DNA of 64,000 nt from Escherichia coli. Its GTDB lineage: Bacteria > Pseudomonadota > Gammaproteobacteria > Enterobacterales > Enterobacteriaceae. Location of the stretch: the NCBI RefSeq assembly GCF_003334315.1, contig NZ_QOWR01000022.1, one strand, 5' to 3'. Both the position numbers and the translations under genes were made by a program. Below are positions 1-59,750 of this stretch, in pieces (the first letter of the stretch is position 1; every line of letters starts with the position of its first letter). Under the pieces are notes generated by a model. It searched no databases. It saw only the letters and a list, made by a program, of their open reading frames with translations, and had not been told where the DNA came from.

Positions 1-149
1 GGTTGAGAAGCGGTGTAAGTGAACTGCAGTTGCCATGTTTTACGGCAGTGAGAGCAGAGATAGCGCTGATGTCCGGCGGTGCTTTTGCCGTTACGCACCA
101 CCCCGTCAGTAGCTGAACAGGAGGGACAGCTGATAGAAACAGAAGCCAC
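1..149 (-). CDS. insA: IS1 InsA, N-terminal fragment (GTG start at 149..147, runs off the window)
   Basis: Minus-strand translation from the GTG gives [49 protein letters not shown], matching InsA from memory. Confidence 0.7.
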
Positions 150-204
150 TGGAGCACCTCAAAAACACCATCATACACTAAATCAGTAAGTTGGCAGCAT
201 CACC
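1..204 (-). mobile_element. IS1 insertion sequence, partial (left terminal inverted repeat plus start of insA); the element continues beyond the window edge
   Basis: Reverse complement of 1..204 reads GGTGATGCTGCCAACTTACTGATTTAGTGTATGATGGTGTTTTTGAGGTGCTCCAGTGGCTTCTGTTTCTATCAGCTGTCC..., which I recognise as the IS1 left end. The psuK reading frame breaks exactly at 204/205. Confidence 0.85.
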
Positions 205-566
205 GTAATAGCGTTGCTAATATTCATGTCATTTATAGCAACCAGCATTTCACCGGTATTATCGAGTAATGATAAATAGCTCGACGTATTTTCTCCCGGC
301 ACAATCAGGCATTTATCGACATAAACGCCAGATTGATTGGTTTGCGTTAGCAGCGATTGGCCATAAAAATCACTGCCTACGGCGCTCAGTAGCCAGGCTT
401 TATTACCCAGCAACGCCAGGTTTTGTGCAATATTGCGCCCTACCCCACCAGGCGTAAATTTTATTTTACCTGGATTTGAATCCGCATAATTTAATGATTC
501 ATGTGAATATCCGGCGACATCAATATTCGCCGAGCCTATAATTACGACATAATCCTTTTCGCGCAT
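205..566 (-). pseudogene. psuK: Pseudouridine kinase psuK (yeiC), 5' part only (about 120 codons), truncated by the IS1 insertion
   Basis: ORF 183..566 (-) begins MREKDYVVIIGSANIDVAGYS... (PfkB-family sugar kinase N-terminus; full protein is about 313 aa). After ...NAIT the frame runs into IS1 and stops after 6 foreign codons. Confidence 0.8.
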
Positions 567-804
567 AGCACGTCCTCTGGTAAAAAATTACCAACCCTGT
601 CAATCCACAAGAATATAGATACTGCAAAGACAGTTTAAACATGTGTTCATATTTAAACATGTGCTCATAGTATGCATGTTTTACGTAAAGTAAATTGCCG
701 CCAGAGAGGCAAAGCGGGCAGATTTGAGCAGGCTCACAAAATGCGATTAAATGCCAGAATTACAAAAGCGAGGAATTTGTGACGGGATGCACAGAACATG
801 AACA

Positions 805-832
805 CTAAAAAAGGGCAGAAAAGAATCTGCCC
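805..832 (-). terminator. Rho-independent terminator downstream of fruA (end of fruBKA operon)
   Basis: GC-rich hairpin gggcagattcttttctgccc followed by a T-run on the minus strand. Confidence 0.6.
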
Positions 833-989
833 TTGAGGAAATAACCTTAGTGTTTGATGAACGTTTCAGGTTTCTACTGAAAGATAAAACCATTTAAATT
901 CATAAAATTACATTCACAAACCGGTCATTCTCTTTGCGCTCATCCAATGATACAGGGCAGTAAAATTCTGCCCTGTAACACACCTTTTA

Positions 990-2681
990 TTACGCGGCTT
1001 TCGCTACTGCGTCCACTTCCGGACGTTTCAGGAAGGCATAGGCCAAACCCGCCACCAGCGTACCGGCAATAATTGCTACCAGGTAACCCAGTACCGGCGT
1101 AATAGCGCCAGGGATCAGCAGAACAAACAGACCACCGTGCGGTGCCATCAGTTTCGCACCAATCGCCATTGAGATTGCGCCAGTCAGCGCCCCACCCACG
1201 ATACAGCACGGCAGCACACGCATCGGATCACGAGCAGCAAACGGAATTGCACCTTCCGAAATAAAGCACAGTCCCAGTACCAGAGCAGCTTTGCCACCTT
1301 CCTGCTGCGCTTTGTCGAATTTGCGACGCGCCACCATTGTTGCCAGACCCATTGCCAGCGGTGGCACCATACCTGCCGCCATAATCGCCGCCATCGGGCC
1401 ATAGGTTTGAGTACTCAGCAGACCCACACCGAATGCGTACGCTGCTTTATTTACCGGACCGCCCATGTCAGTACACATCATGCCACCGAGGATCGCCCCC
1501 AGCAGAACCGCATTCGCAGTCCCCATGGTCTGCAGCCAGTGAGTCAACCCTTCGAGAATGCCAGCAACCGGTTTACCGATCAGGTAGATCATCGCCAGAC
1601 CGACCACCAGACTGGAAATTAGCGGAATGATCAGGATCGGTTTCAGCGCCTCCATACTCTGTGGCAGTTTCAGTTGCGTACTGATTAACTTCGCAATGTA
1701 ACCAGCCAGGAAGCCCGCAATAATACCGCCAATGAAGCCAGAACCGGTGCTGACCGCCAGCATACCACCAATCAGACCCGGCGTGAGACCCGGTCGATCG
1801 GCAATGGAGAAGGCAATGTAACCTGCCAGTACCGGCACCATCAGCGCAAAGGCTGAACCACCACCAATCTGCATCAGCGCCGCTGCCAACGTACCCGGCT
1901 CTTTAAACGCTTCGATACCAAAAGCAAAAGAAAGCGCGATACACAGACCACCTGCAACGACCATCGGCAGCATGTAAGAGACACCCGTCAGCAAGTGACG
2001 GTATGCGCCTGCACTCTCTTTCTTACCTTCAGAGGTCGCCGTTTGAGCTTTGCCCGCCGGTTCATACGGCGTTGCTTCAGCAACCGCTTTATCCAGTTCC
2101 TGCGCGGTTTTCTTCAGCGCCAGACCGGTAGAGGTACGATACATCGGTTTACCAGCAAATTTCGCCAGATCCACTTCGATATCTGCCGCCACAATCACCA
2201 GATCCGCTGCGGCTACTTCTTCGGGAGTGATTGCATTACCCGCACCAACAGAACCACGGGTTTCAACTTTCACCCACCAGCCACGTTTTTTCGCTTCGGT
2301 TTCAATGGCTTCAGCCGCCATAAAGGTGTGTGCTACGCCAGTCGGGCAAGCAGTCACCGCAACTACGCGTTTCGGACCGCTGGCGGCAACCGGTGCTGTC
2401 GCAGCGACCGGCGCAGTGTAAGGTTTCGCATGGCCTTTGGCTTCACTCAGGAACAGCTCAGGGTGCGCAACTGCCCGGGAAATATCGCCCAGCCAGACAT
2501 TTTTACCGTTCAGCGCGCTGTCATTCGGGATGGAATCACCGAGAACAATCGCCATTTCTGCGTCGTTCGGATTGTCGATGATTTCCAGTTTTGCTTTTCG
2601 CGCCGCCGCGCCCAGCAGGGTCTTCGCCATATAGGCGCGTGCCTGACCGAGATTAGCGTCAATAATCAGCAGCGTTTTCAT
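990..2681 (-). CDS. fruA: PTS fructose-specific EIIB'BC component
   Basis: 563-aa ORF with a large polytopic membrane domain and IIB-type region; position downstream of fruK and fruB. Confidence 0.95.
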   Translation of the reverse strand: MKTLLIIDANLGQARAYMAKTLLGAAARKAKLEIIDNPNDAEMAIVLGDSIPNDSALNGKNVWLGDISRAVAHPELFLSEAKGHAKPYTAPVAATAPVAASGPKRVVAVTACPTGVAHTFMAAEAIETEAKKRGWWVKVETRGSVGAGNAITPEEVAAADLVIVAADIEVDLAKFAGKPMYRTSTGLALKKTAQELDKAVAEATPYEPAGKAQTATSEGKKESAGAYRHLLTGVSYMLPMVVAGGLCIALSFAFGIEAFKEPGTLAAALMQIGGGSAFALMVPVLAGYIAFSIADRPGLTPGLIGGMLAVSTGSGFIGGIIAGFLAGYIAKLISTQLKLPQSMEALKPILIIPLISSLVVGLAMIYLIGKPVAGILEGLTHWLQTMGTANAVLLGAILGGMMCTDMGGPVNKAAYAFGVGLLSTQTYGPMAAIMAAGMVPPLAMGLATMVARRKFDKAQQEGGKAALVLGLCFISEGAIPFAARDPMRVLPCCIVGGALTGAISMAIGAKLMAPHGGLFVLLIPGAITPVLGYLVAIIAGTLVAGLAYAFLKRPEVDAVAKAA

Positions 2682-44470: not shown

Positions 44471-44948
44471 GTGAAGTGCGGCACCCCGTAGGTCAGACAA
44501 GGCGGTCACGCCGCATCCGACATCCAACGCCCGAGTCGGTTGCCTGATGCGACGCTGGCGCGTCTTATCAGGCCTACACCGCTGTGAAGTGCTCCACCCC
44601 GTAGGTCGGATAAGGCGGTTACGCCGCATCCGACATCTAACGCCCAAGCCGGTTGCCTGATGCGACGCTGGCGCGTCTTATCAGGCCTACACCGCTGTGA
44701 AGTGCTCCACCCCGTAGGTCGGATAAGGCGGTTACGCCGCATCCGACATCTAACGCCCAAGCCGGTTGCCTGATGCGACGCTGGCGCGTCTTATCAGGCC
44801 TACACCGCTGTGAAGTGCTCCACCCCGTAGATTGGATAAGGCGGTTACGCCGCATCCGACATCTAACGCCCGAGCCGGTTGCCTGATAAGACGCTGGCGC
44901 GTCTTATCAGCATACGCCACATCCCCGGCATACCATGCCGGATGTGGC
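44471..44948. repeat. Tandem BIME/REP array: about 4 copies of a 113-bp unit, each carrying REP palindromes
   Basis: Units begin at about 44471, 44584, 44697 and 44810; each contains ccgcatccgacatc and gcctgatgcgacgctggcgcgtcttatcaggcctacaccgct. Confidence 0.85.
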
Positions 44949-56704: not shown

Positions 56705-56900
<196 letters not shown>

Positions 56901-59750
56901 CTACGAATCCCGCGATTTCCTGACCCTCTCGGCATATAACGTCAGCGTCTGTTTTATCACATCCAGCATTACCGGCTTCGACAGGCAGCTGTCCATACCG
57001 GACTCCAGACACCGCTGCTTCTCTTCAGCCAACGCATTAGCAGTTACTCCGATTACCGGCAACGTCAGTCCCAACTGACGAATGCGTTGCGTCAAGCGGT
57101 AACCATCCATATTTGGCATGTTGACGTCGCTAAGCACGATATCAATATGATTCTTGCTAAGTACATTAAGCGCATCGACGCCATCATTCGCGGTTTTACA
57201 TTGATAGCCCAACGATCCCAACTGATCTGCCAGCAAACGCCGGTTAATCGGATGATCATCCACGACAAGAATCATCATATCGTCATTATCGCTGACCGCT
57301 TTGTCCGTTGACGGCAGAGCGTTAGCAGGATCGTCGCTCTCCATCTCGATCAAATAAATACGCGCCAACAATGCCGGTAGCTCATGCGGAGCAGCCACAC
57401 TGTGTACCCACTCCCCTGGCGCTTTCTCCAGCGGAATACCAATATGGCGACGACAGAAGGTCACTACCGCTCTGCCCTGCCATTTTTTACTCACTACCTC
57501 GTCAGTGATCAACACATCTTCGGGAGTCGGTTCCTGCCCTTCGTATGTTGTAACGACGATGCCGCTGCGCTGCAAACTGGTTTCCAGGAACTGACAGAGC
57601 GACGCATTGCGGACCGCCAGCCAGCAGCGTTTACCACTCAACCCTTCCACGCCTTTTTTCTGCGGGTACTGAGCGCCGTACAACGGAATACGCACGGTAA
57701 ACTGGCTGCCCATTCCCGGTTCTGAATCTACCGAGATATCGCCGTCCATCATGCTGATCAGTTTTTCACAAATCGCCAGACCCAGACCGGTCCCCTGGAA
57801 ATTACGCTGTACGCCCGTTCCGACCTGGAAGAAGGGATCAAACAAGCGCACCACTTCTTTCGCCGGTATCCCCACGCCGGTATCGCGAACACGGATAGAG
57901 AGATAATCGCCATCCGCGCGAACATGCAAAACTATACAGCCGGTATCGGTGAATTTTATGGCGTTACTCAACAGGTTGGAGATGACCTGCTGTAAACGCA
58001 TCGGGTCGCCATTTAAGGCCACTGGCACATCCGGTTCAATAAAGCAGTACAAGCCTAACTGCTTGCGTACCACCAGCGGTAAATAGTTGGCGGTGATGTG
58101 GTTCATCACTTCACGCGGTGAAAACTCACGCGGTTCGATCTTCAACTGTTCCGATTCAATCTTCGAGAAATCGAGAATATCGCTGATAATTTTCAACAAC
58201 AGGCTGGAAGAGTTGTTCATTGCCGTCACCAGCCGATCGACGCCTTTCGGTAACTCTTTGGTTTGCAACAGATCCAGGTTACCGATAATGCCATACAGCG
58301 GCGTTCGCAGCTCATGACTGACGGTGGCAAGGAACATCGATTTTGACTGGCTCGCCTGTTCCGCTGCTTGTGCCATCTCCTGCAACGACTCTTCCATCTT
58401 CACGCGCGAAGAAACATCCACCAGCACACAAATGGCCACGTTTTCATTACGATAGCGCGAATGGACGAAGCTGATTTGCAGATTGGTATTGTTGCTGGTC
58501 AGGACATCAACAAAATTGACCTGCTGCCCACAGATAATTTGCGTCAGTCGTTGGCGGTCCTCATGCGTAAGCATATTGAGATAGGTATGCGCCAGTTCGT
58601 TACTTAAAATATTGACGCCATCAGCGGTACGCAAAATGCAGATACCCACTGGCGCGGAGGCGACAATCTTGCGATTGAACTGCTCATGTTCTTCCAGTCG
58701 CAGGGCGTCGCTTTCCGCCGGAATGAAAATACGTCGCTCGTACATCCGTGCGAGAGTAAACAATGCAGCTCCGGCAAGCACATTCAGCAAAATTGCGTTA
58801 AGGATCAACATGCGAATGCGTTCCAGCACCTTATCAACCGGCACCGAATACACGATGCTTAGCGATGAGGGTGGCAGATTTTTCTTCAGCACCAGCTCCC
58901 GGAACCCTTCCGTATAGCCAAACCAGGAGCGTTCCTGCATCCAGCGAGGATCGCCCTTAATTTTACTTTCTGGTCCGGTAAGCGAAATCAGGGTATGACC
59001 ATTTTCATCAAGAATGGTAACCCCCATCGGCAACGTACCCGGTAAGAAAAAGTTTTCCATCCGGATGGTCTGCTCGACACCCAAAAGCGCCTGCAACCGG
59101 TTCGCCAGATAAACTGGCGTCAACGCGTAAAAATACCCGACGCCAGGGCGCGGACCTTCGCTGATCCAGTAGAGGTTACTGCCGCTATCATCTTGTGGTG
59201 CATTTCGATATTTATTGATGCGTTCATGCAAAGCTTTCAACGCGGTATCGCGTTCCACTGGCATATCACGCAGACCGAAATTGGCCATGCAGAGGTTATC
59301 ACTGCCGATTAAAAATACCCGGTTGAGATCGTAAGCCGCAGAAAAATTATCGCGCCAGTAGCGCATAAACCACGCCAATGACTCCAGAGAACCTCGCCAG
59401 GTGTTACTCATCGCGGAACAATCGGAGTCGGCAAACAGCGGTTCAAACGCAGGCACATCCGCCTGCGTTTCTCGTCCACGCGGGGAAAGCACACCGTTCT
59501 CTGCCGATAAGCGATTTTCGGCGATGTACTTCAGCTCTTTCATCACATCAGAGGTGCGTTGAATAAAGCGCTGAGCCTGATCGGAACTCAGATTAAATTC
59601 CTGACGAATTTCCGATTCTCGCTGATGTAACGCATTAACGATGTAAAAAACGGATGAAAAAGCAATCAACAGCCAGAGCACTAACGCCAATGCTCTGAAC
59701 ATGTAGCGCGAGGCTTTCAGGGTTGTACGAAAAGAAGCAAGGTATTTCAA
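56901..59750 (-). CDS. rcsC: Rcs hybrid sensor histidine kinase RcsC
   Basis: 949-aa ORF with TM/periplasmic domain, HisKA (H-box SHELRTP), HATPase and C-terminal receiver domain. Confidence 0.95.
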   Translation of the reverse strand: MKYLASFRTTLKASRYMFRALALVLWLLIAFSSVFYIVNALHQRESEIRQEFNLSSDQAQRFIQRTSDVMKELKYIAENRLSAENGVLSPRGRETQADVPAFEPLFADSDCSAMSNTWRGSLESLAWFMRYWRDNFSAAYDLNRVFLIGSDNLCMANFGLRDMPVERDTALKALHERINKYRNAPQDDSGSNLYWISEGPRPGVGYFYALTPVYLANRLQALLGVEQTIRMENFFLPGTLPMGVTILDENGHTLISLTGPESKIKGDPRWMQERSWFGYTEGFRELVLKKNLPPSSLSIVYSVPVDKVLERIRMLILNAILLNVLAGAALFTLARMYERRIFIPAESDALRLEEHEQFNRKIVASAPVGICILRTADGVNILSNELAHTYLNMLTHEDRQRLTQIICGQQVNFVDVLTSNNTNLQISFVHSRYRNENVAICVLVDVSSRVKMEESLQEMAQAAEQASQSKSMFLATVSHELRTPLYGIIGNLDLLQTKELPKGVDRLVTAMNNSSSLLLKIISDILDFSKIESEQLKIEPREFSPREVMNHITANYLPLVVRKQLGLYCFIEPDVPVALNGDPMRLQQVISNLLSNAIKFTDTGCIVLHVRADGDYLSIRVRDTGVGIPAKEVVRLFDPFFQVGTGVQRNFQGTGLGLAICEKLISMMDGDISVDSEPGMGSQFTVRIPLYGAQYPQKKGVEGLSGKRCWLAVRNASLCQFLETSLQRSGIVVTTYEGQEPTPEDVLITDEVVSKKWQGRAVVTFCRRHIGIPLEKAPGEWVHSVAAPHELPALLARIYLIEMESDDPANALPSTDKAVSDNDDMMILVVDDHPINRRLLADQLGSLGYQCKTANDGVDALNVLSKNHIDIVLSDVNMPNMDGYRLTQRIRQLGLTLPVIGVTANALAEEKQRCLESGMDSCLSKPVMLDVIKQTLTLYAERVRKSRDS

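Follow-up and report, generated by a model that had tools for sequence, protein, structure and literature searches.

The pseudouridine kinase gene psuK was very probably knocked out by IS1 in a simple insertion at the nonamer CGCTATTAC, an event that appears to be recent in the lineage. The window (the whole stretch of Escherichia coli DNA analysed here, 64 kb in length) opens within the element and passes directly from a single IS1 end into the 5' part of psuK; it displayed a single IS1 end, was collinear with commensal and clinical E. coli such as B379 and was 99.4-100% identical to them, and on these grounds an origin from an IS-rich Shigella was rejected. Such pseudogenisation by a familiar element is routine, and the allele is already present in public genomes.

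The IS1 end and the truncated gene

Positions 1-204 (minus strand) constituted the left end of IS1, cut by the edge of the window; read on the plus strand they corresponded to IS1 positions 565-768, equivalent to positions 1-204 on the minus strand. When the full 768-bp IS1 of the PCP06171 genome was compared to the window by BLAST, this segment was the sole match and was 100% identical over 204 nt, well above the threshold of about 90% set in the preliminary description. It was also free of mismatches to IS1 copies from six complete genomes of E. coli, of which five copies are labelled 'IS1-like element IS1A family' (L001, L002, L011, L012 and L013) and one 'IS1 family' (L009); the remaining IS1 variants differed from window 1-204 at 1-19 positions. 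This is no chance match: the segment reproduces a known element letter for letter, and its breakpoint coincides exactly with the IS1 terminus. The terminal inverted repeat IRL, GGTGATGCTGCCAACTTACTGAT (~23 bp; 182-204, minus strand), was encountered as an exact motif match and as the only copy in the 64-kb window. The boundary of the element was located at 204 and psuK resumed at 205 (junction 204|205).

The first 49 codons of insA occupied 3-149 (minus strand), with a GTG start at window position 149, i.e. IS1 position 56. The initial reading of 1-204 as the reverse complement of the IS1 left end, InsA start included, was hence accurate. On contigs displaying an identical junction, the insA ORF was recorded with the domain PF03811 (Zn_ribbon_InsA). 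Its reading direction is that of psuK (IS1 is co-directional). A consensus scan retrieved a promoter-like site inside IRL (CTGCCA-16-TATGAT; 170-197, minus strand), at what we take to be the place of the known insA promoter pIRL. The element shared its terminal repeat, its insA start at position 56 and 204 fully identical nt with the IS1A-type IS1 of K-12 and relatives, and nothing differed in the visible part, which represents 204 of 768 nt. The IS1 copies occupying the same site in relatives are 768 bp long, are flanked by a 9-bp target duplication and carry the frameshifted transposase gene insAB'.

The psuK fragment (205-566, minus strand) started with the ATG at 566 and comprised 362 nt, i.e. 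codons 1-120 plus two nt, 100% identical to the intact psuK of CP53. Codon 121 was split by the junction, AC being contributed by psuK and G by IS1, and its Thr was retained. The resulting chimeric ORF (183-566, minus strand) encoded 127 aa: residues 1-121, all identical to the intact 313-aa PsuK of CP53 (WP_001208138.1-type), followed by VMLPTY. These six residues and the subsequent TGA represent read-through into the terminal repeat, the stop codon lying inside IRL. The preliminary description had estimated about 120 psuK codons followed by six foreign ones, in good agreement with this count; every detail of that description open to checking proved accurate. No reference PsuK ends naturally with ...NAITVMLPTY, the protein being 313 aa long. 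Among known structures, the fragment matched residues 1-122 of the pseudouridine kinase in PDB entry 7VKP (E = 2.8e-76) and six further 313-aa entries, including 7VTD. In the proposed scenario IS1 transposed into psuK at CGCTATTAC, which covers codons 118-121; the chimeric frame halts six codons into the terminal repeat. One copy of the target nonamer (GTAATAGCG on the window, CGCTATTAC in psuK sense) was found at 205-213, where it flanks IRL as expected for one half of a 9-bp duplication whose second copy lies outside the window.

In the structure of E. coli PsuK, most of the residues contacting the nucleoside are located in the N-terminal half, the ATP-binding loops include 244-253 and 285-308, and Asn143, Val166, the putative metal ligands Asp164, Asn187 and Glu190 and the catalytic Asp256 are named (PMC9247573). 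The product of the truncated gene reaches only about one third of the length of PsuK. Its residues 1-121 are identical or near-identical to those of PsuK/YeiC (7VKP, 7VTD; PfkB), and it keeps the ribose- and base-binding residues Asn14, Asp16, Ser30, Gly41, Asn45, Tyr97 and Met114. In contrast to PsuK, it is deprived of residues 122-313 and with them of Asn143, Asp164, Val166, Asn187, Glu190, the large and small ATP-binding loops and Asp256. The complete PfkB fold with its ATP-binding loops and catalytic Asp256 (GAGD motif) is absent, the ORF ending at 127 aa. The product would retain part of the nucleoside-binding N-terminal half. With neither catalytic Asp256 nor the two ATP-binding loops, the kinase is predicted to be dead; the truncated PsuK should be devoid of kinase activity and unable to phosphorylate pseudouridine. 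The 127-aa product is a gene remnant, a pseudogene fragment, and should be no functional member of the PsuK family.

Distribution of the allele and probable recurrence at the site

In K-12 MG1655, psuK is an uninterrupted gene of 942 nt, as had been stated in the preliminary description. Window positions 205-25000 were 100.0% identical to B379 and to many other A/B1-type isolates, all of which possess a full-length psuK; B379, the nearest complete relative, was collinear with the window through 64000. CP53 differed from the window at two of 4,796 positions and its psuK was likewise intact. Given that psuK is whole in strains whose flanks are identical, IS1 is considered to have entered the gene recently in this lineage. 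The inactivation had been proposed to be strain-specific. This holds insofar as it is absent from K-12, B379 and CP53, but the allele is not unique, being shared by PCP06171, 23AR1101 and 35 contigs.

Two further observations concern psuK in other genomes. The full-length psuK of B379 (L004:27037-27978) encodes the substitution G253E, situated within the conserved GAGD motif and three residues ahead of catalytic Asp256, which may represent an alternative way of losing PsuK. Besides, about 1,190 of the 5,426 complete genomes (e.g. APEC IMT5155) displayed a psuT-psuG-psuK allele 86-87% identical to the common one (query L003:1100-4790), and in these carriers megablast gave no hit for the psuK-fruA intergenic region. 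An identity of 86-87% represents a divergence that looks well above expectation for E. coli core genes, which suggests an old allelic replacement at the locus.

An IS1 end in the same orientation within ~1 kb was detected in 26 of 5,426 complete E. coli genomes. In two of these 26, PCP06171 (NZ_CM129872.1) and 23AR1101 (NZ_CM132250.1), the junction of the window was matched as a single unbroken alignment. Both harbor a full 768-bp IS1 at the same nucleotide of psuK, in the same orientation and with the same target nonamer; the 9-bp duplication GTAATAGCG is found on both sides and is followed by distal psuK, psuG and psuT. Their flanks are of haplotypes unlike that of the window (51 and 56 differing sites in 3 kb, respectively), and the IS1 of 23AR1101 is a divergent variant (97.5% identical) whose IRL starts with GGTAATGGTGCC. 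PGAP annotates psuK::IS1 in both genomes as two partial 'PfkB family carbohydrate kinase' fragments. The exact 127-residue product was retrieved from 52 blocks of the public assembly collection, where it was seen on the 35 contigs mentioned above, and is represented in NCBI by EOW22486.1 (E. coli KTE107) and TFA80582.1. The same broken allele is thus already known from databases, as a split pseudogene in complete genomes; a literature search combining IS1 with psuK or yeiC returned no report of a psuK::IS1 allele.

Carriers of the junction were distributed over at least four flank haplotypes, separated by 29-57 differing sites per 3 kb (1-2%). Haplotype A included the window, L018 and L022 and was identical to B379; haplotype B included PCP06171, KTE107 and others; haplotype C included 23AR1101 and others; and haplotype D was represented by L023. 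Once reconstructed, the empty site of haplotype B was 100% identical to ATCC 8739, E. coli C and BL21-type strains, and that of haplotype C to K-12, with an intact psuK in either case. The haplotype-specific SNPs nearest to IS1 were situated 75-78 nt away on the proximal side and 32-64 nt away on the distal side.

Because the carriers fall into at least four haplotypes 1-2% apart, it is very probable that IS1 entered psuK independently in several lineages, each time at this nucleotide and in this orientation, which would make the site a recurrent hot spot. A single ancient insertion whose allele was spread by descent or by homologous recombination is regarded as rather doubtful. The 204-nt IS1 end is identical between the window and PCP06171, E. 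coli recombines frequently, and gene conversion in place alters IS1 (L006 and L024 share their flank and differ in their IS1 ends), all of which would suit a common origin. It is nevertheless difficult to reconcile with flanks that are 1-2% apart and whose haplotype-specific SNPs start 32-78 nt away from IS1 on either side, or with the existence of 100%-identical empty-site relatives of the carrier haplotypes, and it would need crossovers less than 80 nt away on both sides, several times. The IS1 variants themselves were considered as markers of independent events and were not decisive, because the identical flanks and different IS1 ends of L006 and L024 reveal in-place conversion or assembly effects. 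The far-reaching version of recurrent insertion, in which CGCTATTAC (codons 118-121) is a true site-specific IS1 hot spot hit independently in at least three to four lineages and in which loss or rewiring of psuKGT is repeatedly selected in gut populations, was judged unlikely. The idea of repeated selection parallels the psuK-promoter mutation that recurs in mouse-gut and long-term stationary-phase evolution experiments (PMC9509342, PMC7518454, PMC7858067).

A preference of IS1 for A+T-rich DNA and the existence of IS1 hot spots are known (Meyer, Iida and Arber 1980, quoted in PMC10999674). The target region has a GC content of 0.38-0.39, compared to 0.47 for the psuK gene, and the 40-nt segment round the target (GC 0.375) ranks at the 15th percentile within psuK. 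AT-richness fits the preference of IS1 but, at only the 15th percentile, leaves the exact site unexplained as a cause of recurrence.

Other insertions were encountered around psuK. The psuK-fruA intergenic region displayed at least seven IS1 sites (window-equivalent positions 673-856; L002 and L010-L015), each with its own 9-bp duplication and all located upstream of the promoter-like site of psuK. Other genomes harbored IS1 near the 3' end of psuK, IS1 in psuG, an oppositely oriented IS1 near codon 135 of psuK, or ISKpn26 in psuK. An A-to-C change in the psuK promoter recurs in mouse-gut evolution (PMC9509342, PMC7518454, PMC6731689) and in long-term stationary phase (PMC7858067).

For comparison, the same IS1 end was joined to 796 nt from four other AT-rich or intergenic regions of the window and used as control queries. 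The psuK query (GC 0.40) detected IS1 in 26 genomes; the controls detected it in 23 (narP-yejO, GC 0.41), five (mepS-lpxT, GC 0.41), five (rcsD-ompC, GC 0.35) and no (bcr-yejG, GC 0.46) genomes. Overall IS1 density also predicts a count of the order of 26. The psuK count was high but was equalled by that of the dispensable narP-yejO region; special selection for IS1 at psuK is not claimed, because narP-yejO gathers about as many insertions. The only wider point concerns population genetics: IS elements repeatedly enter the psuK locus in natural E. coli, with divergent lineages interrupted at an identical position. That the exact site recurs is no more than a modest curiosity.

Layout beyond the window edge

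A public contig, NKEV01000022.1 (GCA_002462895.1; 71,380 nt), matched the window without a difference across the 6,566 nt compared and ended inside IS1, at position 440; between IS1 positions 205 and 440 it displayed three differences to the PCP06171 copy. The window sequence evidently derives from a short-read draft broken at the IS1 repeat, and its psuK::IS1 edge flags an assembly of this kind. Nine contigs from other assemblies start in the IS1 IRR and continue with CGCTATTAC and distal psuK, psuG and psuT in the haplotype of the window; the two NCBI ones among them had two to three mismatches to CP53 in 2.9 kb. These same-haplotype contigs with the other junction, along with the complete relatives, point to a simple insertion in the genome of the window.

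An IS1-associated deletion or inversion, with distal psuK and possibly psuG and psuT missing or relocated, was estimated to be quite improbable. In its favour, the window contains a single IS1 end, the matching draft contig breaks off within the element, and deletions next to IS1 do occur at the locus. In the metagenome contig L017 (6363-7789, ENA) the identical junction is found with IS1 leading directly to yeiL, distal psuK, psuG and psuT being deleted, and EC05 (L007) exhibits an IS1-flanked deletion from psuG to rihB without target duplication. On the other hand, both complete genomes with the junction of the window contain simple insertions with a 9-bp duplication, the nine contigs combine IRR, duplication and distal psuK in the very haplotype of the window, and one accession series (TFA80582.1 and TFA72271.1) includes both the 127-aa and a 200-aa fragment. 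Distal psuK, psuG, psuT and a second IS1 were looked for across the 64-kb window and none was found. A local inversion is excluded, because no distal psuK, psuG or second IS1 occurs within these 64 kb. An assembly artefact, i.e. an IS1 misjoined to psuK at the end of a contig while the real gene is intact, is hardly credible. Short-read assemblies typically break at repeats, as the public contig does within IS1, but the join to psuK falls exactly at the IS1 terminus and a chimeric join would not reproduce the geometry of transposition. Moreover, this site is occupied by a genuine insertion with target duplication in two genomes closed independently of each other, the junction is found in many independent assemblies from different sources (product in 52 blocks), and complementary IRR-psuK contigs exist.

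In EC05, an intact psuK is followed by IS1 and a truncated rihB.

Expected consequences and neighbouring regions

The first step in the breakdown of pseudouridine to uracil and ribose-5-phosphate would be lost in the presence of the IS1 insertion, because the truncated product could not phosphorylate pseudouridine. Pseudouridine phosphorylation, and with it pseudouridine catabolism, is predicted to fail in the strain; the salvage pathway is non-essential and the practical effect would be small. All annotated relatives show a 13-nt overlap between the psuK stop and the psuG start, with psuT next in line, an arrangement suggestive of a single transcription unit for psuK, psuG and psuT. For psuK, a promoter-like site was located at 639-612 (minus strand), ~46 nt upstream of the ATG, and psuG and psuT are probably dependent on the psuK promoter. 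IS1 insertions are classically polar, and the 768-bp element would be expected to lower the expression of both genes; by analogy, psuG and psuT expression is probably reduced through polarity. As in the classical polar insertions in the gal and lac operons, IS1 resides in the first gene of a small operon whose downstream genes need read-through; polarity on psuG and psuT is a prediction. IS1 ends can form outward hybrid promoters, through which psuG and psuT might still be expressed.

The genes fruA, fruK and fruB were present and collinear in the window, and psuG and psuT would fall past its edge. According to the ORF list and to the collinear genome annotation, fruA (990-2681, minus strand) is intact, encodes 563 aa, is situated upstream of psuK and is transcribed toward it. 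The psuK-fruA intergenic region (567-989, minus strand) was intact as well, and identical to that of strains with an intact psuK; it includes a strong terminator-like hairpin for fruA (834-811, minus strand). It had been suggested that IS1, by its position next to this region, could affect neighbouring expression. For fruA this is improbable because the gene is upstream, reads toward psuK and ends in the terminator-like hairpin, and because the intergenic region is intact. The genes at risk would be downstream psuG and psuT rather than fruA.

Repeats of other types were also found in the window. The mqo-eco intergenic region contained a tandem array of a 113-bp unit of REP/BIME-like palindromes (44471-44910; 3.9 copies, 96% match), the copy number of which appears to differ by one unit from that of B379. 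Between rcsC and rcsB, two REP-type direct repeats of 90 bp (56708-56797 and 56822-56911, ~91% alike) represented ordinary BIME elements.
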